Assembly (NCBI GenBank): GCA_016844745.1
Contig: JAERMQ010000009.1
Span: 7,184-71,183 of the forward strand
Source: Ignavibacteria bacterium
GTDB lineage: Bacteria > Bacteroidota > Ignavibacteria > Kapaibacteriales > UBA2268
Reading direction: 5' to 3'
Length of the DNA: 64,000 nt
Part shown: positions 14,142-60,736 of the stretch, piece by piece
How positions within the stretch are numbered: the stretch's first letter is position 1
Layout: every line of letters begins with the position of its first letter
Notes under the pieces: generated by a model
Seen by the model: the letters and a program-made list of their open reading frames with translations, nothing else
What the model was told of the DNA's origin: nothing
Databases searched by the model: none
Position numbers and translations under genes: made by a program

Positions 14142-14224
14142 CCAAGAGAAACCCCCTAACCCCCTTTAAAAAAGGGGGAAATTCTATCCCCCTTTTTTAA
14201 AGGGGGTTAGGGGGTTTCTCTTGG
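14142..14224. repeat. GC-rich nested 'core' palindrome (ccaagagaaaccccctaaccccc ... gggggttagggggtttctcttgg)
   Basis: Perfect 23-bp outer arms enclosing two ccccc-ttt/aaa-ggggg sub-hairpins. It stands out against roughly 35% GC background. Sits between the POT stop and the next gene start. Confidence 0.85.
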
Positions 14225-14263
14225 TTAAAAGGATGTGAGTATATAACAATCAATAATTTAATA

Positions 14264-17200
14264 ATGTCGGGATTGAGAATTATTAAAATAAATATTAAAT
14301 CAAAAATAAACAAAATACTTGGTATTATCTACGAGGCATTATACTTTATTATTTTCGGTATTTTGGGTATTGCCCTGATAGCATCTGCATCGATGATGGT
14401 GCTTTCGAAAACAGAAAAATTTATGGGCTGGTCGAGGGAATTTATTCTTTCGAAAGTTAATGAAAATTTACTTGGCGAGCTGAAGTTTTCGGATTTTAAA
14501 ATCGGTATGAAGGATGGCTTCCAATTTTCGGATGTCGTTCTGACGGCAGCAGGGGATACGGTGCTTTATGCAAAGAGGATTACTCTCGATGCAGAATATT
14601 TCCCATTATTGGATAGCAAAGCAATTATTAACAAAGTATCGGCAGAAAACCTGCGATTCAAATTATTACGCTCTGCTAAGGATAGTATCTGGAATGTTGA
14701 AAAAATTGCCAAACCTAAAGATGATACGGCAAAGCCTGAAATGCCTGATTGGTTGATTAGTATCGTTAAAGGGAATATAACAAACGGCGCTGTTTTTGTT
14801 ATAGACTCAACTATTAATCCCTGGCAAAAATTTGCACCGGAACGATTATTATTAGAAAATTTCAATTTAAATTTTACATCGAAAGTTTTCTTAAAGGAAT
14901 TGAAGTTTGCAACAGAGATACGTTCCATGTCATTCTTTGAGCGACATTCGGGCATCCGGCTATTGGATGGAGCATTAGCCCTCGATTTGGACCAAAAGCA
15001 TTTTAACATAAAAAAAGTATATCTGAAGACAGATGCCAGCACTATTTCAGCAAATTTACTTGTCGATTCAATCAATATTTTCGATGAAAAAATGCCTGAA
15101 AACTTCCATAAAGCTGAAATCTCCTGCTCTGTTGACAGAAGCGAGATTAGCCCTTCTGATTTGGAAAAGTTTACCGACTTACCTGTTCAGCTTAAAGGTT
15201 TATTCAAGGTAAAGTTTGAAGCCAAGGGTAAACCGGATAATATAAAAATATTACAATTAAAACTTTCGGCATATAATTCCGAATTCAATATATCATGCTA
15301 TATTAAAAATGCCCTTCATCCGGAAAAAATTCAATATAATATTGAATGCAATAAATCAAAACTTATTAAAAAGGATTTGATTGAGATTCTTCCTCAGCTC
15401 AAAAGCGATGAACTGCCCGAATTCGGGGAATTGTTAATTAAAAAAATGTCCGTAACCGGTAGTGTGGATTCAGCTTCTTTTTCAACTAACCTCGAAAGTG
15501 AATTGGGTAAGGTTGATGGAGTTTTTAACTTTGGATTTAATGGGGACAATCCTAATTATTCCGGAAATTTTGTTATTGAAAAATTTATTCCCGAAAAAAT
15601 TATTAAAATACCTCAATTATCGGGTTTTGTCAATCTGAAAGCCGAGTTCAGGGGTTCCGGGTTCGACTATAAGAATATGAATGCGAGCATTGCACTTATT
15701 GCTTACGATTCGAAAATATCGAATGTTGACTTTAAATCAGCTAACATTAAAGCCAGGATTGAAAGCAATGCAGATATAATACTTGATTCGCTCGATATAT
15801 TATTCACAAACGAACATGAGTCTGAAAGCAATAATTCCGATGAAAAATCAAGATTATTAGCCAATGGGAGACTGTCAATAGGAGATATGAATAATCCTGT
15901 TTATAATCTCAATGCGTCTTATTCAGCACTTGATTTAAAGAAAATCTCCGGGACAAGTACTGCTCCCAACTATCTATCCGGTACTACAAAAATAAAAGGT
16001 TCCGGATTTATATTAGACAGTATCCGGCTTGATTTCTCGTCTCGCATCAATTCATGTGTGTTAGGCGACCGTTCCATGATGCCATTCGGAATTGAAGTTA
16101 AAGTCCAACGCGGTACCGGTATGACAAGGAGCCTGTTGCTAAACTCAGATTTTGTCAATGCTTCACTGGTTGGAAATTTCTCTTTCGACGGATTGATTTC
16201 ACTATTAAATTCACAAGCCAGGAATTTAACGGATTTCATTCGAAAGAGATTAAAACCGGTAAATCAGGAAACCGATGACGGAAGTGATACAACTGAGATT
16301 GCTCAATCGAATCCGGCATTAGCATTCGAAAATTGTGATGCTAATGTAAATGTTGAAATTCGGGATGTATCTGTTTTGGGCGCTTTTCTTGACAATATCA
16401 CAATTAATAATAAAACCAGGTTGTCGGCAAAAATTATTTCCGGTGCAAACGAAAGCAGACTTACAATTGATTCAATGATAGTGGATGAATTAAATATCAA
16501 AACTAAGGATTTGAAACTCATCTCTGAACCCATCAAATTAAGTGGCGGATATAAAATTATTATTAAAGATTCTATTGCTAAGCCGGAGAATATCAATTTC
16601 AATTTGCAATCCCGCGGTAAAATTTTAATTAACGATTTGTCGTTATCGGCTATCTCTACAAAATTTAATTTATCCGGTAATACCGCTAATCTGCTGATTG
16701 ATTCCAAAATCAATAATATTATCGGTGTCTATACGGATGGAATAATAGACTTTGCCCAGGACAGCGTTACTCTTTTGCTTGATTCGACTAAAGTAACTTA
16801 CAATAAGACTTATGAATGGCATTCCAAAAGAAATTCAAATAAAATAAGTTACGGAAGAAACGGGCTTGCAATTTACTCGCTTGCTTTTATGCGGAATCAT
16901 TCGGAAAGCATTGCTGTTAGCGGCAGGCTGAAAAACAACGAAGCTCAAAATTTTAATCTGTGTTTAAATAATTTCAATCTGAAAACTATACTTCCATTCA
17001 TTCCCGAAGGTCAGAAGTCATTATTTGAATCACTGAAAGGTAATATTGATTCCGTAAATATTTCCGTTAACGGTCATTTGGATTCTCCTGACATTATTAC
17101 ATCTTTTAAAGGCTCGAATATCGGTTATAACGGGGTTGATTTAGGCTCGCTCAATGCGCAGATTTTACATAATAATACCCGGATTACAGGAAATATCAAG

Positions 17201-18847: not shown

Positions 18848-18878
18848 GGTTAGTTGAAAGTTCTTAAAGTTTGTAAAG

Positions 18879-19016
18879 TTGAGTCCACTCTAAAAAGCAT
18901 TTTTAGTGATAATTACATTCCAAAATCGGAATTTTGGAATGAGAAATATCAAGAACTTGCTAATTCCAAAGTTGTACTTTGGAATTAAATTTTTGGTTTT
19001 TAGATAGGACTCAATG
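18879..19016. repeat. Family B ~135-bp element with terminal inverted repeats (gagtccactctaaaaag…) and two internal hairpins (attccaaaa-ccgg-aatttttggaat; attccaaagt-tgt-actttggaat), copy 1
   Basis: About 90% identical to 34035-34173. Both copies start about 15-30 bp after the stop codon of a plus-strand gene. Confidence 0.8.
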
Positions 19017-19064
19017 TTCGTAAAGGGGAAAAGGGAAGAGGAAAAGGGAAAAGTATGAAGAAGT

Positions 19065-19096
19065 ACTTTCCGAAAGTTTCCCTAATTTCGGAAAGT
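19065..19096. repeat. 13-6-13 palindrome copy 3 (inverted orientation, 1-nt deletion), followed by ttttt and so terminator-like on the + strand
   Basis: actttccgaaagt-ttccctaa-tttcggaaagt-ttttt, 30 bp upstream of the thioredoxin-like gene. Confidence 0.7.
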
Positions 19097-19126
19097 TTTT
19101 ACCATCATCAGAAAGTCTAGAGAAAA

Positions 19127-19636
19127 ATGAAAAAATATAAAACAATACCATTCTACGTAATAATTTGTATTATTATGTTACAACCATCTCTTGCCTTTTG
19201 TTCCGATACAACAATCACCAAGCCTGTAATAGTTGGTAGCTTCACTTGGGAACAATGGAAGGAAGCCGCTCTCTGGAAGGATTATTCAGCTTCGGATTAC
19301 AAGATTGATTCGTTATCAATAAGCAATTTGAAAGAAAAAATCAAATCGAAAAATCCGGAATTTATCATGTTTTCCGGCTCCTGGTGCGGCGATTCGGAAT
19401 CTGAAGTCCCGAAATTCTATAAATTAATGATGATTTGCAGTTATAGCATTGAAAAAATAATACTAATTGGACTCGACCGGAATAAAGCCGAATCCGGAGG
19501 TTCACATATTCAATACAACATCACTAATGTTCCTACTTTAATCGTCATTGTTAATGGTAAAGAAGTTGGAAGAATAACAGAATTCCCCACGAAAAGCTGG
19601 GAAGAAGATATATTAAAGATATTGAGTGATAAATAA
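19127..19636 (+). CDS. Thioredoxin-fold protein (monothiol WCGDS variant), secreted
   Basis: Signal peptide present. FSGSWCGDSESEVP shows a thioredoxin-like active site with CxxS instead of CxxC. Confidence 0.6.
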   Translation: MKKYKTIPFYVIICIIMLQPSLAFCSDTTITKPVIVGSFTWEQWKEAALWKDYSASDYKIDSLSISNLKEKIKSKNPEFIMFSGSWCGDSESEVPKFYKLMMICSYSIEKIILIGLDRNKAESGGSHIQYNITNVPTLIVIVNGKEVGRITEFPTKSWEEDILKILSDK

Positions 19637-19680
19637 AATTGTATATAACCTTATTGTACATTGAAACTGTATTAGAATCC

Positions 19681-19890
19681 AAGAAGAATGTCATTCTGAA
19701 CGAAGTGAAGAATCTTCTACAACCTAAGATGGATGTCTTTGAGGTAAAGAATGAATCATGATTATTCAAGAAAAGCATCAATTCTAATTCTTATAGAAAG
19801 GATTAAATAATTTTGGAAAATCAAAAAAAACTTTTCAGATTTTGCAAGAAGATTCTTCACTGCGTTCAGAATGACATTCTTCTTTCTTTT
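19681..19890. repeat. Family A element with a 135-bp internal spacer (arms aagaagaatgtcattctgaacgaagtgaagaatcttc / agaagattcttcactgcgttcagaatgacattcttctt)
   Basis: Read directly. The arms are about 90% identical to the 4025-4110 palindrome. Confidence 0.8.
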
Positions 19891-19973
19891 AACACCAATT
19901 CGATTTCCTGAATGAATTAGAATATTAATATTTTTTTAAGACTAATTTTTTGAAATAAATACTTAGGAACAAT

Positions 19974-23882: not shown

Positions 23883-25676
23883 TTATTCCTTTATAATCTT
23901 GAAAACCTGAGTATTTTCAGGATATTTCAATTTCAAAAAATAAACACCGGTGGTGAGATTTGAAACGTCAATAATATGATTTGATGCTTGCTGAATTTTG
24001 TCTTCGGAGAACAGAAATTCACCGAGTGTGTTGAGAATACTGATTTCTAATATTCTGCTTTGTTGATAATTGATTTCAAGAAAATCTCTGACAGGATTCG
24101 GATATACATTTACGGAAATATTCCTTTCAGTTTCATTGATTCCGTTAATAACAACATTAATATTGTTAGATGTATCGGAACTGCATCCCGAAAGTGTAAC
24201 AATTACGAAATAATTACCATTCGATGTAGCAGTGTAACTTTGATTTGTCGCTCCTTTGATTAAACCATTTTGATTATACCATTGATTGCCCGAAGCTGCG
24301 TTTGAATAAAGTACATTGTTATTCTGAGAAATGTACGGTGTTTCAGGCTTTGGATTTACTGTAACCGGGATTGAAGAAGCTGCGCCTTCACCTAATGAGT
24401 TGCTTCCTTTAACCGAAATAATTCCCGATACAGCAGATGTATTATAATTTACCGTAATACTGTTTGAAGAACTTGTGCCGGTTGCTCCATTTGGCAAAGT
24501 CCATGAGTAGGAAGTTGCATTTGCTATTGCCGGTATCGAATAAATAACGGAGTTTTGACCCTGGCAAACGAGTGTAGAACCTGATATATTCCCTCCACAG
24601 GTAGGTAAATTATCTTTCAGGATTTTATAGAGCAAAAATGTAACTCCATCGATTCCCGAAGGAAAAGCATTGGAGAGTCCGCACACAACGGCGCCGGAAC
24701 ATGAATCATAAATAACTTTGCTTTTATAACCCCAGGTAGAGCCGGCATGTCCCCAATAATTAATGCCAAGTGTTTTTTCCCTCATTATACCTAATCCATA
24801 GTTTCCGGGGCTTTCGAATTTTGTCATTTCTGAAATTGAGTTTGTATTGAGAATCTTGCCACTCATCAGTAAATTGTACCACTGCACCATTTCGGTCGGT
24901 GTCGAGAAAATTGAACCGGCGCATCCACCGGCAGTATTCAAACCTACCCTCGATGTGTCATGATAATCAATCCCATTGAACCAGCGGTGAGCTGTTTCAC
25001 CCAAAATTGATTCTTTAATATCAAAGAAAGTACTGTCCAGGTTCAATTGGGTAAGAATGCTGTCGCGAATAAGTCTTGAGATATGGAATCCGGTTGCTTT
25101 TTCTGCTATCATACCGGCTAAAACGTAATTTATATTAGAATAATAATAACCAACGCCCGGAGCATACCTTGGAACTTTTTGCCAGCTAAGTACTTCTTCG
25201 GGAGTAAAAATCCGGGTTGGATTATTCATTATTGTATCCATATAAGGAGAAATGAAAATGGGGTCAGTAATTCCACTGGTGTGATTAAGAAGCTGCCTTA
25301 TCGTAATATTCGGACTTATATTCGGATATTCGGGGAGCCATTTCTTAAGTGAATCACTAAGCTTGAGAATATTATTTTCCGCCAGTTTTAAAATTACGGT
25401 AGAAACGAATAATTTTGAATTGCTTGCTATACCGAATTTCATATCTGAAGTTACCGGTTTTCCCGAATACGACACACCACTTGTTCCCGTCCAGATTCCC
25501 TGTCCCGGATAATATACACTTGCAGACATTCCTTTAATGTTTGTTATAATTGATACATAATGGTCTAAAGTATCCTGAAGCATTTTTGATAATATTGGGT
25601 TGAAAGCATTGGAATTTTGAAAGGAAGAAAAAAGAAAAATAAGAAGTATTAAATGTAGTTTGAAAAAAGATTTCAT
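23883..25676 (-). CDS. Serine hydrolase of the beta-lactamase/esterase family fused to an Ig-like domain and a T9SS C-terminal sorting domain
   Basis: N-terminal region with IASNSKLFVSTVILKL (SxxK-type) and overall class C beta-lactamase-like layout. C-terminal VNVYPNPVRDFLEINY...GVYFLKLKY T9SS CTD. Confidence 0.65.
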   Translation of the reverse strand: MKSFFKLHLILLIFLFSSFQNSNAFNPILSKMLQDTLDHYVSIITNIKGMSASVYYPGQGIWTGTSGVSYSGKPVTSDMKFGIASNSKLFVSTVILKLAENNILKLSDSLKKWLPEYPNISPNITIRQLLNHTSGITDPIFISPYMDTIMNNPTRIFTPEEVLSWQKVPRYAPGVGYYYSNINYVLAGMIAEKATGFHISRLIRDSILTQLNLDSTFFDIKESILGETAHRWFNGIDYHDTSRVGLNTAGGCAGSIFSTPTEMVQWYNLLMSGKILNTNSISEMTKFESPGNYGLGIMREKTLGINYWGHAGSTWGYKSKVIYDSCSGAVVCGLSNAFPSGIDGVTFLLYKILKDNLPTCGGNISGSTLVCQGQNSVIYSIPAIANATSYSWTLPNGATGTSSSNSITVNYNTSAVSGIISVKGSNSLGEGAASSIPVTVNPKPETPYISQNNNVLYSNAASGNQWYNQNGLIKGATNQSYTATSNGNYFVIVTLSGCSSDTSNNINVVINGINETERNISVNVYPNPVRDFLEINYQQSRILEISILNTLGEFLFSEDKIQQASNHIIDVSNLTTGVYFLKLKYPENTQVFKIIKE

Positions 25677-25917
25677 AAAATGATTCCTTGATATATTGAT
25701 TTAACCTGTTATTTATTCAATTTTACTTATCGTTCTTAATTCAACATTATTACTACGTTATAAGTAATGAATAACAAATTAGTCTGGTATTTGTTACAAT
25801 AGAATTTTTTTTTAAGTGAAGTTCTGAATAATGATGTGTTTCAAATAATATCCTTTCCTATTTGGGATAGAACAAACAAGGATGTTTATTCTACCCTTAA
25901 GTAGGTCAAACATCCCT

Positions 25918-26048
25918 GTTTGACTATATGTTGCATTTCATTTTTGATATGTTTGACTTTTGTTGCATTTCATTTAAGATATGTTTGACTATTTGTTGCA
26001 TTTCATTTTTGATATGTTTGACTATTTGTTGCATTTCAATTAAGATAT
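25918..26048. repeat. Tandem array of 4 x ~33 bp (gtttgactatttgttgcatttcatttttgatat)
   Basis: Four contiguous units, 85-100% identical, with no spacers, so not CRISPR. Preceded by a hairpin ggatgtttattctacccttaagtaggtcaaacatcc. Confidence 0.85.
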
Positions 26049-26186
26049 GATAAAGTTCATTTATAGGGTAGAATCTGACTGGCTAATTATTTTTGGATTT
26101 TGAATCAAGTTGCCAATGACAAAATTTTCTACCTTTTATTTTGAACAATTTATTGAAACAAAAATATATGCAACAATTAACACTTA

Positions 26187-26276
26187 GAGAAATCCCCCCT
26201 ACCCCTTTTTCAAAGGGGGATAAGAAAAATATTCTTCAATCCCCCTTTGAAAAAGGGGGGTAGGGGGGATTTCTCT
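26187..26276. repeat. GC-rich nested core palindrome (gagaaatcccccctacccc…ggggggtaggggggatttctc), 3' of nosY
   Basis: Near-identical to the cores inside the composite elements at 42395-42485 and 48078-48170. Confidence 0.85.
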
Positions 26277-26363
26277 TGAATTTGTCATTTTTTATTTTTA
26301 TTATGCCGAAATTTTGGAGTACAGAATAACAATTTCAAAATAAATGTGATTTATTAAGATAAT

Positions 26364-27146
26364 CTAAAAATCATTCTTGCGGAATAGCCAGCCGGCTAAT
26401 GTCAATGGCGCTAAAAGCCATACAAGAAGCATTGCAAACGACATTACCATACCCATTACATCGCCGAAAAAGCGCTCGAATACAGCACCCGTATAACCCA
26501 TTAAAGCTGCCGCATCCAATTTCAACATTACTAACAACCGTGCCAAATCGATTGGATTCAGGAAGCTAAGTATAATTAACGGCGCTTCCAATGGATAATC
26601 CTGAAATGCCGATATACCCAATAAGAGTAAACCATCAAATAGGAATGCAAAGAAAAACCATATTAAAAACGCAGCGCCTAATCCTTTTGCTTTATCCACT
26701 ATACTGGTAGATATGCAGAATGCAACCGCTGTGAACATGAAAATAAGGAGAATACCACTTGAAAGCATGATTAGGATTACCGGAATGCTTTCAGATACAT
26801 TGATTAATAAAGGCAAACCTGCGCCAACAAGGAATACCAATGATAACGGAACAGCCATACCGAAATATAATCCGAAGAATAGCTGGCTGCGTCTGATTGG
26901 CTGGGATAGTAATAGTTCGATAAATTCACGAGAATAATAGATATAAAGTGAACCGAAAACGAGGCTCAGCAATGGATTTATAAGAAGGATTATGCTTAGT
27001 ACGGAAATAATTACTTTGGAGCTGTCTCCGCTGAATTCATACAATGCTTCTACAGAAAACAGGAGGAATATTCCGTAAAGAATCACCCAGCGGCTGCGGA
27101 ATACGTCTTTAAATTCAAATTCTATTATTTTTAGTGTTGTGTTCAT
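26364..27146 (-). CDS. nosY: NosY, ABC-2 type permease of the nitrous-oxide reductase maturation system
   Basis: 260 aa, 6-TM ABC-2 permease, last gene of the nos cluster after nosD and nosF. Confidence 0.75.
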   Translation of the reverse strand: MNTTLKIIEFEFKDVFRSRWVILYGIFLLFSVEALYEFSGDSSKVIISVLSIILLINPLLSLVFGSLYIYYSREFIELLLSQPIRRSQLFFGLYFGMAVPLSLVFLVGAGLPLLINVSESIPVILIMLSSGILLIFMFTAVAFCISTSIVDKAKGLGAAFLIWFFFAFLFDGLLLLGISAFQDYPLEAPLIILSFLNPIDLARLLVMLKLDAAALMGYTGAVFERFFGDVMGMVMSFAMLLVWLLAPLTLAGWLFRKNDF

Positions 27147-27182: not shown

Positions 27183-27280
27183 GAGAAATCCCCCCTACCC
27201 CCCGGTTATAGAAGTAGAACATTGAAGTAGAAGTAGAAATAAATCCCCCTTTGAAAAAGGGGGGTAGGGGGGATTTCTTC
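27183..27280. repeat. Core palindrome arms with an inserted 'cggttatagaagtagaacattgaagtagaagtagaa' module, in the nosF-nosY intergenic spacer
   Basis: Read directly. Both the outer arms and the inner ccccctttgaaaaaggggg hairpin are retained. Confidence 0.85.
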
Positions 27281-29259: not shown

Positions 29260-29308
29260 CTATATTAAGTTTTATAATCTTTAAAATTTTTGTAACTTCT
29301 ATTAAAAA

Positions 29309-29424
29309 GAGAAACCCTCTAACCCCCTTTGAAAAAGGGGGAACTCTTCTTCTTCTATTTCTACTTCTACTTCTATGTTCTACTTCTATGTTCTACTTCT
29401 ATAACCGGGGTTAGGGGGTTTCTC
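29309..29424. repeat. Core palindrome arms flanking a (tagaagtagaa)n tract, in the nosL-nosD intergenic spacer, with T-runs on both sides
   Basis: gagaaaccctctaaccccctttgaaaaaggggg…ctacttctacttctatgttctacttctat…ggggttagggggtttctc-tttttt. On the transcribed (minus) strand the hairpin is also followed by ttttt. Confidence 0.85.
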
Positions 29425-29431
29425 TTTTTTC

Positions 29432-30604
29432 TTACTCTTCCAACGCTAACTTTGAAAGTTCGCTCCAGTTCAACGTATCAAATTTCGATTCCAATTTTAA
29501 TTTGGGGATTTCTTCTTTTGATACTAACGATACGGCATTAAGTCCCATTGGGGAATGGAACTCGAGCGAACGGACGTAAGTCGCATGTTCAGCATTTATA
29601 AATACGCCGGGATTTAAGTAATTTATTGTCCACAGAGAATGAATCTTTTCATCTTTCAAATTTTTATCTTTATATGCAATCATACATTCGACAACATCAA
29701 ATTTATGAATTTTTCCTTTATCAGTAATTATTTCCGCACCCCATTTCGAATCAACAATCGTCATCTTGCAGTGAGCACAGGCATCCGAACCGAGTACTAT
29801 CGGCTGTGGCTCCTTTGCACAGCCTGTTACTCCCGATAAAATAACAATCGCTGAAATTACTAATGCTGCAGTGGTTCCGGGTTGTCCACTTTGGACTGAG
29901 GGTTTAGTATTCTTTTTTCTAAAAAGTGATATTATGAAAAGAATTAATGAGAATCCCGCACAATAGGCTCCGAGATAGGGCCACGATATAGCATTGAAAT
30001 TAAGAAGCTGTTTCGAACCAATCAGGGGTGGCTGATATGCCATTCCTGTAATTTTTATAGCTGCTTTCGGATTTAAATTATGCCCGTAATCGTATTCCCA
30101 TAAGTAGAAGTCATACAGTCCATAAATTAATCCTGCTAAAAAAATCACAATCCAAACCGTAGTGATAGCTTTTTTATCGAATATAAAAGCAATAAATCCT
30201 AAAAAGAGCATGAAGCCTATGAAATAAGGCATAATCTTGAGTTCCGGGATCGATTCAGGCTCTATACGCTTCATCCCAATATAATGATTAAGTCCGTTAA
30301 GGCTTTCCAGGTCATGCTCTTTATGACCGGTTATTTTATCTATATGAATATAGATACCCAAACCTTCGGGATACTGAGGAGCTTCCAAAGATATGCTCCA
30401 TATTGGGAGGAAATAAATCGGGATTAGTACTAATATTCCAATGAACATTAGTACTCTTGTTTTGGTTATCATGTGAGTATCAATAAAATTTATAATACTA
30501 AAAAAATAATCCTCTCCTGTCGTAAGCTTGCTTCGGACAAGAGAGGATAAGAAACTTATGACACATACCTGTATAAACCTGTTTTCATATAGGTTTATAC
30601 ACAA
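29432..30604 (-). CDS. nosL: Fused NosB-like polytopic membrane protein (N-terminal ~230 aa) plus NosL copper chaperone lipoprotein domain (C-terminal ~160 aa)
   Basis: The C-terminal part has a lipobox LSGVTGC followed by a NosL-like block (GSDACAHCKMTIVDSKWGAEIITDKGKIHKFDVVECMIAY). The N-terminal part is multi-TM and sits right after nosZ, as nosB does in clade II clusters. There is no internal Met between the two parts, so they are encoded as one ORF. Confidence 0.65.
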   Translation of the reverse strand: MCINLYENRFIQVCVISFLSSLVRSKLTTGEDYFFSIINFIDTHMITKTRVLMFIGILVLIPIYFLPIWSISLEAPQYPEGLGIYIHIDKITGHKEHDLESLNGLNHYIGMKRIEPESIPELKIMPYFIGFMLFLGFIAFIFDKKAITTVWIVIFLAGLIYGLYDFYLWEYDYGHNLNPKAAIKITGMAYQPPLIGSKQLLNFNAISWPYLGAYCAGFSLILFIISLFRKKNTKPSVQSGQPGTTAALVISAIVILSGVTGCAKEPQPIVLGSDACAHCKMTIVDSKWGAEIITDKGKIHKFDVVECMIAYKDKNLKDEKIHSLWTINYLNPGVFINAEHATYVRSLEFHSPMGLNAVSLVSKEEIPKLKLESKFDTLNWSELSKLALEE

Positions 30605-34034: not shown

Positions 34035-34173
34035 TTGAGTCCACTCTAAAAAGCATTTTTTGTGAAAATTACATTCCAAAACCGGAATTTTTGGAATGAG
34101 AAATATCAAAGACTTACTAATTCCAAAGTTGTACTTTGGAATTTAATTTTTTACTTTTTAGAGTGAATTCAAT
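34035..34173. repeat. Family B ~135-bp element, copy 2
   Basis: About 90% identical to 18879-19016. Begins 13 bp after the response-regulator stop codon. Confidence 0.8.
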
Positions 34174-36700: not shown

Positions 36701-36730
36701 AATTATTTAAGTTCCTATCAAAAGAAGAAA

Positions 36731-36835
36731 AACCCCCTAACCCCCGGTTTTAGAAGTAGAACATGGAAGTTGAATATAGAAGTAGAAAAAATTCCCCCTT
36801 TTTCAAAGGGGGTTAGGGGGTTTTTCTTCTTTTGA
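36731..36835. repeat. Core palindrome arms plus a tagaagtagaa module (gaagaaaaaccccctaacccccggttttagaagtagaacatggaag…ccccctttttcaaagggggttagggggtttttcttc)
   Basis: Read directly. Same architecture as 27183-27280. Confidence 0.85.
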
Positions 36836-36909
36836 TTTAAATTAACTATAAATTAGTATCATAAATAAATCTTTTCCAAATAAAATAAAATTCCTAATTA
36901 TTACGTAAT

Positions 36910-39787: not shown

Positions 39788-40735
39788 ATGAAAGGTGTAT
39801 TATGTTCAGCTCCCCCCCCCCATAAGAATCATGTAATCTTCTTTAATATAAGATATTTACTGGTTCTATTTGTTGTAATCGCTTTAACCCATTTCATGTC
39901 TTTAAATGAAGCAAAAGCACAGTGGTATACACTTTGCAAGTGCCAATCAGATGCGTGGGTCTACCAAAATAAAAGTCTTGAATATTATTGCCCTGGTTCA
40001 CAAACATCATGTACAATTTATTATGTCCTTGGAATTAATGAAGAATGTAATGAATATTTTATTTCAGTACGATGGTTTACTTGCTTCCCAATGTGCACTG
40101 GGTGGACTGTAAGAGATTATTACAATCTTGTAGTTCAAGAAGTTGTAGCAAGAGGACCTCTTGGTGGTAGTTCTTACGTTAATCTCACCTTTGCTTCATG
40201 TTGGTATTCAAAAGAGGAACAAGATGCAAATGGTATTAAATGGATCACTTTACATCCTTGCAGTTATTATAATTGCTGTCACACAACTTATGATGTTTCA
40301 ACTAATCCACCATCAGTAATTTATGAAAATGATGGACCATGTAACCCTCCCTTAGACCCTGAAACCAATAATTCATGTATCCATGTATGCGACCCACCTT
40401 GGACTCCCAAAATCTCAATTCAAGACCTTCCCAATGATAACCAAGGTAATGAAAAAAATTCCGAAGAGAGTGATTTCAATTATAAATTGGCGTTGTTCCC
40501 TAACAGACCTGGGGATGTGATATCACTAAGTTTAAAATCGGACTATAAGGGTAAAATTGATATTTATATTAGTGATATTGAAGGCAAAATCATATTTAAA
40601 AACCATTTTATTTCTAATAATTCAGCCGATGTTGCGTTTGGTCTTGGTTATAATTTGGAATCAGGAATTTATTTCTATCAAATAATACTGGATGATGGTA
40701 GAAAATATACTGGGAAGATTAATAATGTTAAATAG
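39788..40735 (+). CDS. Cysteine-rich secreted protein with a T9SS C-terminal sorting domain; a C10 homopolymer tract lies in codons 8-11
   Basis: At least 20 Cys in 315 aa. C-terminal GKIDIYISDIEGKIIFKNHF…GIYFYQIILDDGRKYTGKI is T9SS-CTD-like. The poly-C run is at 39812-39821. Confidence 0.5.
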   Translation: MKGVLCSAPPPHKNHVIFFNIRYLLVLFVVIALTHFMSLNEAKAQWYTLCKCQSDAWVYQNKSLEYYCPGSQTSCTIYYVLGINEECNEYFISVRWFTCFPMCTGWTVRDYYNLVVQEVVARGPLGGSSYVNLTFASCWYSKEEQDANGIKWITLHPCSYYNCCHTTYDVSTNPPSVIYENDGPCNPPLDPETNNSCIHVCDPPWTPKISIQDLPNDNQGNEKNSEESDFNYKLALFPNRPGDVISLSLKSDYKGKIDIYISDIEGKIIFKNHFISNNSADVAFGLGYNLESGIYFYQIILDDGRKYTGKINNVK

Positions 40736-42275: not shown

Positions 42276-42298
42276 AGGGGTTCTAAAAATTACAAATT

Positions 42299-42598
42299 GT
42301 TCCTGCGGATGAGGCTACGTGAAAAGTCAATAAAATTGTCATCCTGAACTCCAAAATACTAAGAATAATAAAAATAAAAAATGACAAATTCAAGAGAAAT
42401 CCCCCCTACCCCCCTTTTTCAAAGGGGGATAAGAAAAATATTTATAAATCCCCCTTTGAAAAAGGGGGGTAGGGGGGATTTCTTAAACTTGAAATTATTG
42501 AACTTTTTTGAATTAAGAAAAATCTGTCATTGGTAACTTGATTCAGGATACATAAACCGCACTGGGAGGGGATTCCTGTATCCGCAGGAATGATATTC
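42299..42598. repeat. Composite ~300-bp element (outer arms, a 'gtcattctgaac'-type inner arm, GC-rich core palindrome, structured right half containing the conserved loop ccgcactgggag), copy 1
   Basis: Collinear with the elements at 48018-48290 and 60441-60736, all in the same orientation. Begins 24 bp after the stop of the upstream gene. Confidence 0.85.
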
Positions 42599-42606
42599 TT
42601 TAATTT

Positions 42607-43509
42607 TTAGAACCTCCCTTTATTGAATCCGTTCTTAATAAGAAATTGCTCCAATGTCATGCAGTTCAGGTATTTATCTTTGCAATTTTTTATGGCGGTT
42701 TCAATTTCCGGTGGATAGGGAGGACGTCCGTTTTTTTCAGATAATAGCCGCATCTTGTAGAATTCTTTTGCAAAAAGTTTCATTGCGAATGTAGGTTCTG
42801 CCTTATATTCAAAAGACTCGCCATCATTAATTTTACTCAAAAGCGCAGCTAACTCATTTCCCGAAACAAAATCTGTTATCAGGTTCATCTCAATATTATG
42901 ATAATACTTTTGGAACTGGAAGGCAATAGTTACAAACTCGCCAATATCCTTGCTTGAGATATATGGTATTTTTGCATCGCCATCGGTGGAGCCTTTGATA
43001 ATACCATCCTTGATAGGAAAGTAGGGGGCGCCTAAATTATCCATAAATGTAGCTAATTTGAAAATTGTAAAGGGTACAGTTCCTTCCCGAATATTATTTT
43101 CCAGCATTAATTTACTTTCTAAATGCGGTATTCCGGTTTCTTCCATTCCAATACTCAGGACGGAAGTAAATACAAGGTGCCTTATACCGGATTCACGGCA
43201 TGCTTCAATAATATTCCTGCCCTGTTTCATTTCTTCTTTAGTACTGACTTTTTTATAATCTTTCGACCATGGTTGAGTTAAACCGAACACACCATGTGCA
43301 TTTTTAAAAGCTGCTAATAATGAGGCTTTATCATTTAAGTCACCAAACATTACATCTGCTCCCTTTTCATATAAGGCATTAGCCGAAACATTATCCGGAT
43401 ACCGGGTTAAGGCAACAACATGAAAATCTCTTGAACGAAGCAATGCATCTACTACTGCACCACCCTGGTTTCCTGTTGCACCGCATACAACTATTGTATT
43501 TTTTGCCAT
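42607..43509 (-). CDS. NmrA-like NAD(P)-binding protein
   Basis: N-terminal Rossmann fold (IVVCGATGNQGGAVVDALL) and NmrA-like length of 300 aa. Confidence 0.75.
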   Translation of the reverse strand: MAKNTIVVCGATGNQGGAVVDALLRSRDFHVVALTRYPDNVSANALYEKGADVMFGDLNDKASLLAAFKNAHGVFGLTQPWSKDYKKVSTKEEMKQGRNIIEACRESGIRHLVFTSVLSIGMEETGIPHLESKLMLENNIREGTVPFTIFKLATFMDNLGAPYFPIKDGIIKGSTDGDAKIPYISSKDIGEFVTIAFQFQKYYHNIEMNLITDFVSGNELAALLSKINDGESFEYKAEPTFAMKLFAKEFYKMRLLSEKNGRPPYPPEIETAIKNCKDKYLNCMTLEQFLIKNGFNKGRF

Positions 43510-43515
43510 AGATTT

Positions 43516-43714
43516 TTAATTGTTAATTGTCAATTGTTAATTTGTCTGAATTAGGATTTTTAGGATTATAAGATTATAGGATAAATAATTCATAATTCAT
43601 AATTCATAATTCGTAATTTTCTGAACCTTGATTTACCTGATTAAATGATTACCATGATTATTTTTTATAATTAGTAATTAGTAATTAGTAATTAGTAATT
43701 AGTAATTAGTAATT
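43516..43714. repeat. Three heptamer microsatellite arrays (taattgt x3-4; cataatt x4; taattag x6) plus a partial family C element at 43613-43660
   Basis: Read directly. Located between the NmrA-like gene start and the 3' end of the 759-aa gene. Confidence 0.85.
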
Positions 43715-43719: not shown

Positions 43720-45999
43720 TCACTTCCTGATAACTGCAATTTTACCAACAGATGAAGTGTTGGTGGAACTCGAAGAAGTAACAATAAGATATATTCCACT
43801 TGAAACTAAATTGCCGGAAGAGTCACGCCCATCCCAGGTTGTAATTTTACTTCTTGTGGTTATAGAACGAATGAATTCACCGTTTGATGTCAGGATGCGG
43901 ACATCCGAATCGGCTGCGAGTCCGTCAATAAATAGTTCTTTATCCAATCCCGAATAAAAAGGTTGGGGATAGCAATTGAGCGAATAAGATTCCAATGGCT
44001 GCACGGACTGTGTTGAAGCCATGTAGAGCTGATTCCTTGTGCCGATGTATAAAGTACCTGTTTGTTCGTTCAGGGCAAGGGAAAGAATCTCATTTGTAGC
44101 AAGAGGACTATTAGAAGTGTTGTAAGTAGCAATTGTATCGCTTCCATCTTCATTTAGAATCCATATTCCGGAATTTGTTGCAAACCATTTATTATTTAAT
44201 GGGTCAACTAAAATATCATTAATTTTTTGCCCTTTTAAAATAAATACTTCCTTTTGGATGATCGGTTGGAATCCGGAAATTACAAAGTCGGGATTATGTA
44301 GAACAGATACACCAAATACGGTACCTATCCAAAGCCATCCCGATTTATCGAAAGCGAGGGCTCTTTGTATATTACTGATTAATTTATTTGAAGTAGTCAG
44401 CATATCGAATTTATCATCCTTTGGATTATCGGGAGTACCCATCTCATTGAAGTAATATAATCCCAGTCCATCTTCTTCCGAACCCAACCATTTAGTACCG
44501 TACCTGTCGATAGCAAGTGTGAGGAAGGCTCGATTGCCGGGATTAAGCCTGTTTTCATAGCAATGCATATTGTTATCTTTATCTATGGAAAAAAGGACAG
44601 ACCCGGGAGAACTCTTTACTCCAAAATTTATTACCCATACTGTTCCATTATTGTCTTGTTCTGCTTTACCCATTACTACATAGGTGTCATGATCCGGTAA
44701 TGTAGGTTTAATACAGGAATTTTTAGTATCATAATTTGAAAAGATATTGCTATCAGCTTTTTCTTCAAATATTAGAACACCGGTTCCCCAGGAAGAGGCA
44801 ACAATTCTTCCATCAGTTAAGGCTTTAATCCTGAAATAACTGTTAGTTAGAATCTGCTTGTATTTATCATCTTCCACGTTAAATAATGTCCAGGTTTTTG
44901 AATCAAAACTTTCGAATCCGGCTCCGGCAGTAGATATTGCCGTCGATGCCCAAAGACGCCCTTTCGGGTCGATATCCAATTCGGTAAATTGGTTTGTTTT
45001 AGGAGTATTTATTGGAATTCGTGTAAATTTACCATTGATAAAGTAACCTGCCCCTTGATTGGAATATCCGATAGCTATTAATGGATTATCAATTGAGCCA
45101 CCAAAATCAAAACAGGAAATAAATCCCGGATGCTCAATTTTAATTAATTCATCTTTAGGGAGAATTAATAAGCTGAAAAGGTTGGAAATGAATAAATTAT
45201 TGCCATAAGATTTCATGTAGATAGAAGAAAAATCCCTATCTTTAACATATAAGCCGGAAACAATTTTTCCAAAGGAATTCTTCAAAGCGATATATACCGA
45301 ATTCTGGTAAGATGCAAAACTTAATACGGTGTTATCGGAAAGACTATCAGCAGTAGTATAATTTTTCCATGAAAATCGATTTGATATAGAATCAATATTA
45401 GCAACCGCAATGCCGGCATCTGTACCAACCCAAATAATATTATCCTGAATAAACACCTTGTTGGTATTGGTCTCCTTCTGAAAATTACCAAATTGAAAAA
45501 CCGATTCACGAAATACTTTTTTCTCAAGGTCAAAAATTGCCAAGCCAAAACTTGTTGCAACAAATAGTTTTGAATCTTTGATGAGAAAATCATTAATTCT
45601 CCGGTTGGTGATATTCCTGTCTGTTTTTATCGATAAATCATGGAACCATTTTTTATCCTCCGAATAAATATCGATTACTCCATCACCGGAGCCGATAATT
45701 ATCTGCTTACGAACGGAATCGCATATAATAGCTGTGGCATCGAGACTCTCCAAAGCATTAATATTCCTGAATTCTTTAATCTCTTTGGTTAATGTATCGA
45801 AACTGTAAACGCCCCCTGATGTAGCTACCCAAATCCTGCTTTGCCAATCGATAGCAATTGCCAGCGTTTCGTAAAACGAGCTGCTTGCCTGCCAGTTTTC
45901 CAGCCTTTTCTGATATGCAATTGATATTCCTGCCGAAAAGCAAAAAAGAGCTAAAAATAAAATTATTTTTGATATTTGAAAATATGATTTATTCTTCAT
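43720..45999 (-). CDS. Secreted beta-propeller protein (two-component-regulator-propeller/Reg_prop-like repeats) with a T9SS C-terminal domain
   Basis: Signal peptide present. Repeated W.GT..G…D motifs. C-terminal CYPQPFYSGLDKELFIDGL…GIYLIV sorting domain. Confidence 0.55.
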   Translation of the reverse strand: MKNKSYFQISKIILFLALFCFSAGISIAYQKRLENWQASSSFYETLAIAIDWQSRIWVATSGGVYSFDTLTKEIKEFRNINALESLDATAIICDSVRKQIIIGSGDGVIDIYSEDKKWFHDLSIKTDRNITNRRINDFLIKDSKLFVATSFGLAIFDLEKKVFRESVFQFGNFQKETNTNKVFIQDNIIWVGTDAGIAVANIDSISNRFSWKNYTTADSLSDNTVLSFASYQNSVYIALKNSFGKIVSGLYVKDRDFSSIYMKSYGNNLFISNLFSLLILPKDELIKIEHPGFISCFDFGGSIDNPLIAIGYSNQGAGYFINGKFTRIPINTPKTNQFTELDIDPKGRLWASTAISTAGAGFESFDSKTWTLFNVEDDKYKQILTNSYFRIKALTDGRIVASSWGTGVLIFEEKADSNIFSNYDTKNSCIKPTLPDHDTYVVMGKAEQDNNGTVWVINFGVKSSPGSVLFSIDKDNNMHCYENRLNPGNRAFLTLAIDRYGTKWLGSEEDGLGLYYFNEMGTPDNPKDDKFDMLTTSNKLISNIQRALAFDKSGWLWIGTVFGVSVLHNPDFVISGFQPIIQKEVFILKGQKINDILVDPLNNKWFATNSGIWILNEDGSDTIATYNTSNSPLATNEILSLALNEQTGTLYIGTRNQLYMASTQSVQPLESYSLNCYPQPFYSGLDKELFIDGLAADSDVRILTSNGEFIRSITTRSKITTWDGRDSSGNLVSSGIYLIVTSSSSTNTSSVGKIAVIRK

Positions 46000-47943: not shown

Positions 47944-48017
47944 TCTTTATTGTTTTTCTCAAATCTTTCGAATTGTCATTCAAGCATTAGAGATTGTGTG
48001 AAAACTATCAATAATAG

Positions 48018-48290
48018 AAGAATGTCATTCTGAACTCCAAAATAATGGAATTAATAATAATATGCAATAACAAATTCAAGAGAAATCCCCCCTACCCTCC
48101 TTTTTCAAAGGGGGATAAGAAAAATATTCTTCAATCCCCCTTTGAAAAAGGGGGGTAGGGGGGATTTCTCTAAGTTGAAATTTTTGCTAATTTTTGAATC
48201 AAGAAAAATCTGTCATTGGTAACTTGTTTCAGAGTCCAGAAGCAGCATTGGGACTGGAATCTTCACTTCGATTACGAATGACATTCTTCT
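48018..48290. repeat. Composite ~275-bp element, copy 2 (family A arms gaagaatgtcattctgaac / gaatgacattcttc enclosing the GC core and structured right half)
   Basis: Collinear with copies 1 and 3. The core at 48078-48170 is about 98% identical to 26187-26276. Confidence 0.85.
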
Positions 48291-48555: not shown

Positions 48556-48764
48556 CGGTTTTAGAAGATAGAACATAGAAATAGAAGTAGAAGTAGGGTA
48601 AGGTTAATTTTTATTAGTACATTTTGCAATGAATACCATCATTTCATTAAAATATAAAATGGTGGTTATATGAAGCTAATATATAACAATACCAAAATAA
48701 ATATAATAAAAATCGACCTTACTCTACTTCTATGTTTTACTTCTAAGTTCTATGTTCTAAAACC

Positions 48765-48837
48765 GGGCCTATAGCTCAATTGGGAGAGCGCCAGATTTGC
48801 ATTCTGGAGGTTAGGAGTTCGAGCCTCCTTAGGTCCA
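48765..48837 (+). tRNA. tRNA-Ala (anticodon TGC) with a G3:U70 identity pair
   Basis: Acceptor gggccta/taggtcc gives the G3·U70 wobble characteristic of tRNA-Ala. Anticodon loop ttTGCat. T arm aggagttcgagcctcct. Confidence 0.8.
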
Positions 48838-48944
48838 CGGGGTTATAGAAATAGAACATAGAAAAAGAAGTAGAAAAGGTTAATTTTTAATTAACCTTTT
48901 TTTATCATATACTTAAATTTTTGGTTGAGATACAAAAACTGAAT

Positions 48945-55446: not shown

Positions 55447-55623
55447 AATATTATTAATTAACGTGTTATTCTTTTTTTTATTTCTTACTTTAAGCTGTTT
55501 CTACCTTATTTCATAACATTTTCATCAAATTTTCTAATTCTTAAGCAATTTTCTTACCAATTTTTTCATTTTTTTACATCTGTTCTATTCAGGTCTTCTT
55601 TTATTTTGTATTCAATCTCAATC

Positions 55624-59658: not shown

Positions 59659-59916
59659 TTTTTATTCTAACACTTTTAATCTTACAAAATAATTTGTAGA
59701 TGTTTTCCTATAGGCTGCAAGTTGATTTGTGATATGATATTTTTTTTATAATTTTGCTTTATTAATTATCAAAACATTATTATTTTAGTTTATAAGACGT
59801 TCTTTATTTTTAATATTTTAATTTTAAAATAATTTTTTCTTATATTTTCACAAATTTTATAACGTATATTTGCAAATTAAATTTTAATAGTTTAAATTTT
59901 TTACCATGAGGATGAA

Positions 59917-60411
59917 ATGATTTTACCTAAAGAGACAAAAAAGATTTTAAAAAAAATTGATTATACTTTAACCGGAAAGTGCTTTGAGCCTGATACTACA
60001 GGGAAAATAAATGAAAATATATTTTCCGGATTATCCGATAAAAATCTGGGGAAACTGGAATTTTTACTTCATAAAATTGCCCCCGAATGTACGATTCAGA
60101 AATTTGTTGCAATGCTTGCTACTGAAATTCAAATGCAAGCACAATGGGATATTCTAAATGCCGCTTCGGAAGACGATGACCTGGATAAAGAGGACGTTGA
60201 AACTGAAGAAGATGAGGATTGGGACGAAGAGGACGAAGATTGGGATGAAGACGACGAAGATTGGGATGAAGATGAAGACGAAGATTGGGATGAAGATGAA
60301 GACGAAGATTGGGAAGATGATGACGATGACGTTGATGATGACGATGACGATGACGTTGATGATGACGTTGATGAAGACGAAGATTGGGAAGATAATGAAG
60401 AAGTAGTTTAA
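59917..60411 (+). CDS. Small protein with an extremely acidic, Trp-punctuated repetitive C-terminus (EDEDWDE repeats, then D/V-rich)
   Basis: A 164-aa ORF. The last ~75 aa are at least 85% D/E, with W every 7-9 residues, encoded by 21-24-bp tandem DNA repeats. The N-terminal 90 aa are non-repetitive. Confidence 0.45.
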   Translation: MILPKETKKILKKIDYTLTGKCFEPDTTGKINENIFSGLSDKNLGKLEFLLHKIAPECTIQKFVAMLATEIQMQAQWDILNAASEDDDLDKEDVETEEDEDWDEEDEDWDEDDEDWDEDEDEDWDEDEDEDWEDDDDDVDDDDDDDVDDDVDEDEDWEDNEEVV

Positions 60412-60440
60412 ATATTTAGGTTGGTTCTTGAAACTCTTTA

Positions 60441-60736
60441 ATTGTCATTCCTGCGAATGAGCTGTGTGAAAAGTCAAAAAAATTGTCATTCTGAAATCCA
60501 AAATACGGAACTTAATAAAAATATGCAATGACAAATTCAAGAGAAACCCCCTAACCCCCTTTGAAAAAGGGGGAATTTTTTGTCCCCCCTTTTTCAAAGG
60601 GGGTTAGGGGGTTTCTCTCTGTTGAAATTGTTGCCATTATTTTAAATCAAGAAAAATCTGTCATTGGTAACTTGATTCAGAATCCATAATCCGCACTGGG
60701 AGTGGGTTCTGAATCAGTTCAGAATGACAATCTTCC
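60441..60736. repeat. Composite ~300-bp element, copy 3
   Basis: Collinear with copies 1 and 2. The core variant is gagaaaccccctaaccccctttgaaaaaggggg…ccccccctttttcaaagggggttagggggtttctc. The right-half hairpin is tgattcagaa-N25-ttctgaatca. Confidence 0.85.

Follow-up and report, generated by a model that had tools for sequence, protein, structure and literature searches.

What are the GC-rich palindromes that recur between the genes of an Ignavibacteria bacterium, and how did they come to be there? The question is raised by a stretch of 64,000 nt (hereafter the window) from a metagenome-assembled genome (MAG) of this organism (assembly GCA_016844745.1, contig JAERMQ010000009.1, forward-strand positions 7,184–71,183). 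An earlier examination based on the letters alone (the sequence-only reading) had noticed eight nested palindromes in it and had proposed that they were either a propagating element or a selected structural module. These copies are named here by their start positions: 14142, 26187, 27183, 29309, 36731, 42395, 48078 and 60540. They are probably non-autonomous dispersed palindromic repeats of the REP/REPIN kind, as their insertion, their copy number, their doublet architecture and their arrangements all resemble those of REPs and REPINs. Insertions at operon junctions, occurrence in dozens of genomes and copies lying in frame within genes support the propagating side of the earlier proposal.

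The window contains exactly eight such elements, within a few nucleotides of the places first proposed and 79–122 bp long rather than 75–95 bp. The arm pattern GGGGKWRGGGG, with one mismatch allowed, matches 31 times against 2.47 expected, a count reached by 0 of 100 shuffled sequences, and all 31 matches lie inside the eight elements. The same 783 bp (1.2% of the window) hold 41 of the 56 runs of five or more C or G, and no further partial copies were found in the window beyond the eight elements. The elements are not the most GC-extreme sequences of the window, as had been supposed, since more than 15 coding stretches are higher (0.65–0.68 GC in 40-nt windows).

Two subtypes of outer arm can be distinguished. 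Subtype A, carried by copies 14142, 29309, 36731 and 60540, pairs GAGAAAC5-TAA-C5 with G5-TTA-G5TTTCTC; subtype B, carried by copies 26187, 27183, 42395 and 48078, pairs GAGAAATC6-TA-C6 with G6-TA-G6ATTTCTC. The two arms of a copy are 92–100% complementary in six copies, 82% complementary in 29309 and 100% complementary over the 20-nt outer arms of 27183. Arm variants co-vary inside a copy: in 36731, for example, GAAAAAC5 in one arm faces G5TTTTTC in the other. The inner hairpin, C5TTT-GAA/TTC/AAA-AAAG5, has a stem of 8–9 bp and a loop of 3 nt, inside the range of GTAG REPs (stems of 5–13 bp, loops of 2–20 nt), and occurs 13 times in the eight copies (12 by pattern, plus a mismatched hairpin with a CCTCC stem in 48078). 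Inner hairpins and the three kinds of interior are as the sequence-only reading had described them. As the C-run is common to the inner hairpin and the outer arm, each half of the palindrome forms one unit made of a tag, a linker and a hairpin. The half-unit would consist of the tag (G)AGAAA(T)-C5-6-TA(A), an 8–9 bp stem-loop C5-6TTT-triloop-AAAG5-6 and, on its other side, a G-run and ATTT. Two half-units placed face to face would yield the palindrome of 80–95 bp found in the window, which is the architecture of a REPIN. All eight copies of the window are face-to-face doublets or derivatives of such doublets.

The potential of these sequences to form hairpins is high. The five fully palindromic copies fold, at minimum energy, into one hairpin of 35–40 bp (between -69 and -78 kcal/mol, with z from -9 to -13) and not into the hairpin within a hairpin that had been envisaged: for copy 42395, the extended hairpin reaches -72.1 kcal/mol versus -51.2 kcal/mol for the nested fold, which is ~20 kcal/mol worse. 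According to these models, copies that are transcribed or single-stranded would fold into one very stable hairpin. The suggested G-quadruplexes find no counterpart in the sequence, as the canonical motif (G3+N1-7 x4) is absent from every copy and no strand of a copy carries more than three G-runs.

All eight copies are intergenic. They occupy 8 of the 31 spacers of at least 100 bp and 7 of the 28 of at least 150 bp, far from the majority of long spacers claimed at first, and are found in 5/17 unidirectional, 2/6 convergent and 1/8 divergent spacers. The evidence for insertion comes from the nitrous oxide reductase (nos) cluster, whose order is nosZ, nosL-like, copy 29309, nosD, nosF, copy 27183, nosY, copy 26187. 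The closest relative of the NosD of the window among 5.8 billion proteins is only 56% identical and no sister genome was found; a strict empty-site comparison is therefore impossible, and the nos junctions of three relatives were compared instead. In these relatives, nosF and nosY overlap by 4 nt (3/3), and the nosL-nosD spacer measures -4, 34 and 230 nt, the sequence of the 230-nt spacer (from a Kapabacteria relative) being unrelated to the element. In the window, these two junctions (nosF-nosY and nosL-nosD) span 155 and 172 nt, and a copy of the element fills each of them. As these junctions are short or overlapping in relatives and element-filled in the window, the nos copies are insertions inside an operon. 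Upstream of nosD, the open reading frame (ORF) 29432–30604 encodes 390 aa, of which only residues 273–366 match the NosL domain, and relatives have two genes in its place (~190 aa and 160–200 aa), which points to a fusion or to a wrongly set start.

The copies are also numerous enough to break short-read assembly. Logan contigs, which are independent short-read assembly contigs of the source sample, are 100% identical to the window up to their ends, which fall inside copies (14169 for L085, 27250 and 29388 for L108), and a metagenome contig (L110) ends inside a copy as well. Such matches and ends validate the sequence and indicate a multi-copy repeat.

The element is not confined to this assembly; such a confinement is what the sequence-only reading had said would refute its proposal. 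One genome per GTDB species was scanned with the pattern GAGAAA-N0-2-CCCCCTAMCCCCC, which does not include the inner hairpin, and at least 84 loci were found in at least 43 assemblies. Their labels include Rickettsiales, Kapaibacterium, Melainabacteria (Avigastranaerophilus), several orders of Deltaproteobacteria, Thiobacillus, Aminicenantes, Thermoanaerobaculia, Peribacteria and Bacteroidota (one of them a complete Flavobacterium chromosome), among others. Among the matches listed, the GC content of the contigs that carry the loci ranges from 31 to 69%, a hairpin follows the arm in 68 of 83 evaluable loci, and this hairpin has the TTT...AAA form in 36 loci, as against 11 of 20000 random positions. 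The stem is kept as a sequence across assemblies (C5-6TTT/AAAG5-6) with more than 20 forms of triloop, and Kapaibacterium carries one compensatory stem variant (TTG/CAA). Since the partner arm is more variable (a G-run, a linker of 1–5 nt, a G-run, ATTT), what the loci have in common is AAAT, C-run, linker, C-run and hairpin. The core can be written AAAT-C5-6-TA(A)-C5-6-TTT-triloop-AAA-G5-6 and is a near-identical 20-mer across many phyla, in some of which the linker of the partner arm is CA, CC, A, CT, TT or ATTTA.

The arrangements of the half-units are diverse. Among the matches listed are singlets, at least 9 face-to-face dimers, at least 6 back-to-back dimers and head-to-tail arrays. In a Rickettsiales MAG, the dimers are wrapped in lineage-specific outer repeats such as GAGTYTGTGAC. 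The arrays of the Aminicenantes MAG CAWART01 (L048) comprise 14 and 10 head-to-tail half-units of 38 nt (5335–5857 and 6845–7232) and lie in opposite orientations around an Hsp20 gene with an AT-rich upstream region. These inverted arrays were considered as a possible REPtron and rejected, the flanked gene being hsp20. About 85% of the listed matches in low-GC loci are intergenic, and in the Rickettsiales MAG they often start 14–45 nt past a stop codon. Pooled over lineages, the orientation shows no bias (~8 sense versus 6 antisense), while the half-units of Kapaibacterium and ELA738 lie in sense downstream of a gene in 7 of 8 informative cases. A GC-skew test for strand-specific insertion only recovered a skew that tracks the local gene strand.

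Some copies lie within genes. A back-to-back dimer of a Rickettsiales MAG (CANDYP010000003, L008, 3130–3230) is in frame in mfd and adds ~37 residues (ISPPDKGGRGVSGDEFGLLCSELALANPPTPLVRGAG) relative to the Mfd of Escherichia coli, between regions that align to residues 379 and 438. A Bacteroidota variant of the half-unit (GAGAAAAGCCCCCTAACCCCCGAAGGGGGAA) is found in a Type ISP restriction-modification gene of the Cytophagales MAG JAAFJK01 (L049, 2378–2398; L063, 717–737), the gene segment being duplicated on two contigs. There, the element lies inside the C-terminal specificity domain, and the domain match is ~100 residues longer than the Pfam model; this is probably an in-frame insertion too. 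Viruses are not an evident vehicle of the element, as the 19 matches of an IMG/VR scan are mostly coding-like (E-K-S-P-L-P-P-K-G...) and lack the TTT...AAA hairpin. A BLAST search against isolate plasmids and phages retrieved no plasmid match and one irrelevant phage match. In five IMG/VR sequences (L089, L094, L098–L100) and a Verrucomicrobiales MAG (L069), the 20-mer lies in an apparent phage gene (…EKSPLPPKGAGEQGPELPSREEVLAYCA…) and no TTT...AAA hairpin accompanies it; this may reflect chance, an origin of the motif in coding sequence or an ancient insertion.

The eight copies and a composite that surrounds one of them are listed in the Table.

Table. Coordinates, folding and setting of the palindromic copies of the window and of one composite mosaic
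Feature	Coordinates	Strand	Structure and folding	Setting
Copy 1 (14142), subtype A, solo	14140..14226	.	Perfect 40-nt arms, 7-nt loop; -77.6 kcal/mol, z -12.9	14 nt past the stop of an MFS/PTR2 transporter gene (12696-14126); next gene 38 nt downstream
Copy 2 (26187), subtype B	26186..26276	-	-69.5 kcal/mol, z -8.8	Centre of a reversed composite (~26090-26336); downstream of nosY (26364-27146, minus strand)
Copy 3 (27183), subtype B, asymmetric	27183..27280	+	20-nt arms 100% complementary; purine tract GGTTATAGAAGTAGAACAT... (27204-27244) in place of the left inner hairpin	Fills the nosF-nosY junction
Copy 4 (29309), subtype A, asymmetric	29304..29429	-	Minus-strand purine tract 29342-29406, CTTCTA-type tandem units	Fills the nosL-nosD junction
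Copy 5 (36731), subtype A variant (GAAAAAC5/G5TTTTTC)	36717..36836	+	Perfect 29-nt arms reaching into copy-specific flanks; -57.4 kcal/mol, z -7.6; purine tract 36746-36793	Divergent spacer between a HAD hydrolase gene (minus) and an ORF of unknown function (plus)
Copy 6 (42395), subtype B	42393..42485	+	Perfect 36-nt arms, 17-nt loop; -74.4 kcal/mol, z -10.4	Centre of the composite 42337-42601, between convergent genes
Copy 7 (48078), subtype B	48079..48171	+	38-nt arms, 97% complementary; single C>T arm change that pairs as G-U on the plus strand; -78.3 kcal/mol, z -11.9	Centre of the composite 48017-48289; GAPDH gene upstream, tRNA-Ile downstream
Copy 8 (60540), subtype A	60540..60618	+	Perfect 34-nt arms, 11-nt loop; -68.8 kcal/mol, z -9.9	Centre of the composite 60484-60735, between convergent genes; canonical terminator at 60752-60782
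Composite mosaic	42337..42601	+	L module (TGTCATC...AATGACA), GC palindrome, R module (TGTCATTGGTAACTTGATTCAG...GGAATGA)	

The modular interiors noticed by the sequence-only reading extend further than it had claimed, as the purine tract is a repeat in its own right and so are the flanking TGTCATT modules. One inner hairpin is swapped for the purine tract GGTTWTAGAAGTAGAACAT... in 27183, 29309 (reverse) and 36731, copies that represent the two arm subtypes. This tract is also found directly against the 3' ends of tRNA-Ile and tRNA-Ala (48.5–48.9 kb), which makes it an independent module. Its sites there are 48557–48616, 48704–48765 and 48839–48880, after tRNA-Ile and after tRNA-Ala, with an inverted copy before tRNA-Ala. 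The spacer between the two tRNA genes can form a ~65-bp hairpin (-89 kcal/mol, z -13.7); the pair is typical of the spacer of an rRNA operon, and the window has no rRNA gene.

Four copies, 26187 (in reverse), 42395, 48078 and 60540, form the centre of a composite of ~270 bp, in which the GC palindrome is flanked by a TGTCATT...AATGACA module on its left and by a TGTCATTGGTAACTTG...GAATGACA module on its right. A metagenome scan with the right module retrieved 25 contigs, and no GC palindrome lies nearby in 22 of the 23 non-coding cases; the composite arrangement of the window is reproduced by a single one of these contigs (L110, 30% GC). As the right module mostly occurs without the GC palindrome, the composite is, like a BIME, a mosaic whose palindromic modules can be separated.

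The left modules (42337–42388, 48017–48075 and 60484–60535) and the right modules (42525–42601, 48211–48289 and 60659–60735) go with a second palindromic family, with TGTCATT...AATGACA ends and the arms GAAGAATGTCATTCTGAACGCAGTGAAGAATC, that is also found at 4026–4109 and 19681–19884. The right module (TGTCATTGGYAACTTG...CAAGTT...GTGACA) is widespread in metagenome contigs of 30–52% GC, where it usually adjoins TGTCATTTCGA...GGAGAAATCTG...CAGAGATTTCTC...TCGAAATGACA palindromes.

Small dispersed palindromic repeats are a well-known kind of element, and one more family of them in an uncultured member of the Ignavibacteria would be ordinary. What is unusual here is a near-identical core that spans many phyla and GC contents without the GTAG or CGTC tags that mark the two REP superfamilies described so far. 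The closest likeness is to REPINs and GTAG REPs, exemplified by those of Pseudomonas fluorescens SBW25 and by the REP/BIME elements of E. coli. The element shares with them a short GC-rich stem-loop with a conserved unpaired tag, the assembly of two inverted units into a hairpin of ~80–110 bp, and the coexistence of singlets, both dimer types and tandem clusters. It also shares their extragenic location downstream of ORFs in unidirectional or convergent spacers, rare in-frame copies (one in a repair gene), a patchy distribution among taxa and BIME-like mosaics. No target-site duplication is present around the copies of the window or the seven full ones of the Rickettsiales, and both this absence and the mosaics with other motifs fit REP/BIME elements. 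REPINs have been defined as inverted REP doublets that form a hairpin (PMC3116915). REPs have been described as stem-loops that form dimers and clusters downstream of ORFs in unidirectional or convergent spacers of a patchy set of taxa, and that occasionally lie in frame within genes, once in a repair gene (PMC3733652, PMC3116915). The element differs from these families in that its tag is not a GTAG located 5' of the palindrome and its linker varies by phylum. Moreover, its stems are homopolymeric and near-identical across phyla, whereas REP families are usually lineage- or RAYT-specific, and neither a RAYT nor a REPtron was found for it in the loci searched.

Several observations weigh against a REPIN-like origin. 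A purely selfish repeat would not usually keep a 20-mer nearly identical from phylum to phylum, and a factor or function conserved among the hosts could account for it instead. The spacer that holds copy 36731 is a divergent promoter spacer, and no sister genome is at hand that could provide a strict empty-site polymorphism. RAYT-associated REPs carry GTAG directly 5' of the palindrome, in a role that resembles that of a guide sequence (PMC8266576). No such unpaired GTAG is found here, as subtype B reads hairpin-GTAG-G5ATTT, with the tag on the 3' side, and subtype A reads GTTAG. A Pfam scan of 33 ORFs of the window, which left out ~20 larger ones, detected no RAYT, HUH protein or transposase, and a crude screen for HUH-Y motifs in the window and ~0.8 Mb of flanking loci gave no candidate. 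In a batch Pfam scan of 148 neighbouring ORFs, no family occurs in more than 3 ORFs and no mobile-element family is recurrent. All-against-all clustering of the ORFs of the 84 loci listed likewise yielded housekeeping families only, with no recurrent transposase. RAYTs are single-copy genes, and one located elsewhere in the genome may have escaped these scans.

Other known families were compared with the element. The CGTC REPs described by Di Nocera et al. in 2013 in Chlorobi, Bacteroidetes and Alphaproteobacteria (including Rickettsia) resemble it in their presence in the FCB group and Rickettsiales, the dominance of head-to-head dimers, the existence of intragenic copies and the absence of any identified dedicated transposase (PMC3733652). 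However, CGTC REPs combine a terminal CGTC tag with a stem of 8–9 bp; no CGTC tag lies next to the hairpins of the window, the stems are unrelated, and the core string is missing from that survey and its supplements (PMC3733652). Correia elements of Neisseria, ERIC and the pneumococcal BOX, RUP and SPRITE repeats are likewise intergenic, ~100–150 bp long, co-transcribed as long hairpins, and prone to cluster and to insert into each other (PMC10969869). They are confined to a genus or a family, whereas the core of the element spans phyla, and Correia elements duplicate a TA target and bear 26-bp terminal repeats, whereas no duplication is seen at the element. The Rickettsia palindromic elements (RPEs) are also palindromic and may lie in frame within genes, as the element does in mfd and probably in the Type ISP gene. 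They differ from it in their greater length, their AT-rich composition, their restriction to Rickettsia and their unrelated sequence. The GC clusters of yeast mitochondria are short, GC-rich mobile palindromes in AT-rich intergenic DNA (PMC4478555), but they are organellar and eukaryotic and have no sequence relation to the element, so that the analogy is one of appearance only.

At the gathering threshold, a search of the whole window against Rfam retrieved only four tRNAs, and in a permissive search of 42280–42620 all matches were far below gathering scores, the strongest being generic models of miRNA precursors with long hairpins. Full-text searches of the open-access literature for the arm strings returned only papers on mitochondria, telomeres and G-quadruplexes. 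The core is undescribed in the open-access literature searched, including the supplements of the REP survey (PMC3733652) and reviews of repeats (e.g. PMC10969869). The sequence-only reading had matched the element to no named family, and none matched in Rfam, in the literature strings or in the REP and MITE catalogues. The element is best not classed as a GTAG REP, it is not a CGTC REP and belongs to no Rfam family, and in the absence of target-site duplication it does not qualify as a classical MITE.

On the REPIN-like reading, the following model for the propagation of the element can be drawn. It would spread via a single-stranded hairpin intermediate handled in trans, and the mobilizing protein would be a single-copy enzyme encoded elsewhere in the genome, most plausibly a RAYT-like HUH/Y1 transposase. 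Copies that are transcribed may, as a side effect, act as RNase III targets (through stems of 20–40 bp), as 3'-end barriers or as partial bidirectional terminators, with the outer arms supplying AAGAGAAAU upstream and AUUUCUCU downstream of the GC stem. Precedents for such effects on transcripts are the Correia elements cut by RNase III and the terminator-like SPRITE (PMC10969869).

These possible effects on RNA could also be the reason for the existence of the copies, which would then be modules selected by the host as bidirectional intrinsic terminators, attenuators or stabilizers of mRNA 3' ends that set transcript boundaries or the stability of segments. On both strands of each full copy, the GC-rich stem is preceded by an A-rich arm (AGAGAAAT, 5') and followed by a U-rich one (AUUUCUCU or UUUCUCUU, 3'). 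A terminator scanner flags 42439–42399 as well as inner hairpins followed by a pyrimidine tract at 27263–27245 (on the sense strand of the nos mRNA), 29323–29341, 36812–36794 and 60555–60573. Most copies lie downstream of a gene end, as do those of the Rickettsiales MAG, the sense bias of Kapaibacterium and ELA738 points in the same direction, and the terminator-like SPRITE and RNase III-processed Correia elements provide precedents (PMC10969869). This explanation is nevertheless unlikely. Two copies split nosL-D-F-Y at junctions that are translationally coupled in relatives, where an efficient terminator would cut off nosD, nosF and nosY; as these genes lie downstream of them, copies 27183 and 29309 are not efficient terminators. 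Moreover, the two asymmetric nos copies are opposite in orientation relative to transcription, and of the two G-U-compatible mismatches one falls on the sense strand and the other on the antisense strand. Copy 60540 is followed by an ordinary terminator, copy 36731 separates divergent genes and the pooled orientation is unbiased. A 20-mer common to several phyla is not expected of terminators either, and the stems are kept as sequence and not only as pairing.

Mobility of another sort is conceivable, in which the copies would be nested cut-and-paste MITEs: an inner element, with a C-run and a G-run as terminal repeats, would have inserted into the central TA of an outer palindrome GAGAAATC6-TA-G6ATTTCTC and duplicated this TA, and an IS630/Tc1-type or other DDE transposase would later have mobilized the nested product. 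Both subtypes can indeed be read as outer arm, TA, inner element, TA and outer arm, and the 8-mer GAGAAATC/GATTTCTC is also the central hairpin of an unrelated, widespread palindromic repeat. Repeats inside repeats occur here (in the composite mosaic, and where the purine tract stands in for a hairpin), and pneumococcal MITEs insert into each other (PMC10969869). Nested insertion is yet improbable, given that neither TA nor any other duplication is seen at the outer boundaries of the window or Rickettsiales copies, that the TAA/TTA linkers of subtype A are inverted and not direct, and that other phyla have CA, CC, CT, TT or ATTTA at this place. Isolated half-units lack a second TA, and back-to-back dimers and head-to-tail arrays misfit a unit with fixed terminal repeats. 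No parent insertion sequence with matching ends and no DDE transposase were found nearby, the scanned ORFs of the window containing no transposase and the flanking loci no recurrent one. A role at the DNA level, as cruciform, H-DNA (triplex) or G-quadruplex signals for supercoiling, replication or nucleoid organization, appears very improbable. Perfect palindromes with 34–40 bp arms can form cruciforms, C6-TA-C6/G6-TA-G6 would read as a short homopurine-homopyrimidine mirror repeat, and supercoiling of DNA has been listed as one hypothetical role of REPs (PMC3733652). However, no copy has four G-runs on one strand, the mirror repeats span just 5–6 nt per half, and the copies are irregularly spaced, with 23 of the 31 spacers lacking one. 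The in-frame insertion in mfd (and probably that in the Type ISP gene) and the variable arrangements in other genomes resemble insertion events more than signals set in place. That the copies stem from a collapsed repeat or from chimeric joins made during assembly or binning is hardly credible. Short-read contigs do break inside copies, and joins at these places are the weakest points of the MAG contig, but the Logan contigs match the window perfectly into the interior of the elements, the gene order across 27183 and 29309 is the conserved nosL-D-F-Y order, and dozens of independent assemblies, one of them the complete chromosome of an isolate, contain the elements too.

A wider proposal would make the REPIN-like copies of the window members of a third REP-like superfamily, defined by a homopolymer tag and a hairpin (AAAT-C5-6-TA(A)-C5-6TTT-triloop-AAAG5-6), present in at least 10 phyla at 31–69% GC and mobilized or maintained by a widespread enzyme or host factor that would recognize the stem sequence itself. 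We regard this extension as possible and put it forward tentatively.

Other features of the window were noted in passing. A third palindromic family (ATTGTCTGAACCACTGATTAATCTGATTAAATGATT) is found at 11492–11604, 12252–12308, 12440–12550 and 43607–43665, with the arm pairs 11500/11567 and 12252/12445, and the Logan contig L085 starts inside one of its copies, at 12464. A small repeat (AACTTTCCGAAAGTAGGGAAACTTTCGGAAAGT) has three copies (17–52, 1010–1045 and 19064–19099), and a 70-nt repeat with a AATTCCAAAGT...ACTTTGGAATT hairpin has two, 90% identical (18932–19001 and 34089–34158), with a terminator-like flag at 34119–34143. At 25917–26049, upstream of a minus-strand gene (23883–25676), a 33-bp unit (TGTTTGACTATTTGTTGCATTTCATTTAAGATA) is repeated four times in tandem (90% matches); this array could consist of regulator-binding sites. 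Heptamer tandems at 43585–43618 (ATAATTC x4.9) and 43668–43714 (TAATTAG x6.7) occupy the spacer between the genes 42607–43509 and 43720–45999. A C10 homopolymer (39812–39821), 24 nt inside the 5' end of ORF 39788–40735, could be a tract for phase variation by strand slippage or reflect an uncertainty in assembly length.

Two HEPN-domain genes (317–682 and 4227–4622), each with an overlapping small partner ORF (57–320 and 4592–4915), may be toxin-antitoxin pairs of the HEPN/MNT type. A 140-nt direct repeat, 82% identical (4840–4979 and 7903–8042), ties the second pair to a site 3 kb away. ORF 8038–11445 encodes 1135 aa and contains seven periodic repeats of 150 nt, and 59917–60411 encodes a strongly acidic repeat protein rich in D, E and W with tandem GAAGACGAAGATTGGGAT units.

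For the genomes that carry them, the palindromes have practical consequences. They break short-read assemblies, Logan and JGI contigs ending inside them, and they lengthen intergenic spacers within operons. Once translated, the element gives a proline/glycine-rich peptide (e.g. ...SPLTPLFQRG...), so that spurious ORF calls, or insertions such as those in Mfd and the Type ISP protein, are possible; masking the elements would help the annotation of uncultured lineages. For the family, the consequence is of another order. On the current view, each REP family depends on a cognate RAYT and is for the most part specific to a lineage. The core described here is near-identical from Ignavibacteria to Rickettsiales, Deltaproteobacteria, Acidobacteriota and Melainabacteria, with a fixed stem and a free triloop. 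Such conservation of the stem across phyla implies one of two things: the element often spreads horizontally along with a recognition protein that travels with it, or the sequence is selected by a host machine that is itself conserved. Phylogenetic profiling turns the search for this partner into a concrete and testable task, and the copies within nosLDFY constitute a natural experiment on the way in which long hairpins in an operon influence the processing of the environmentally important N2O-reductase transcript.

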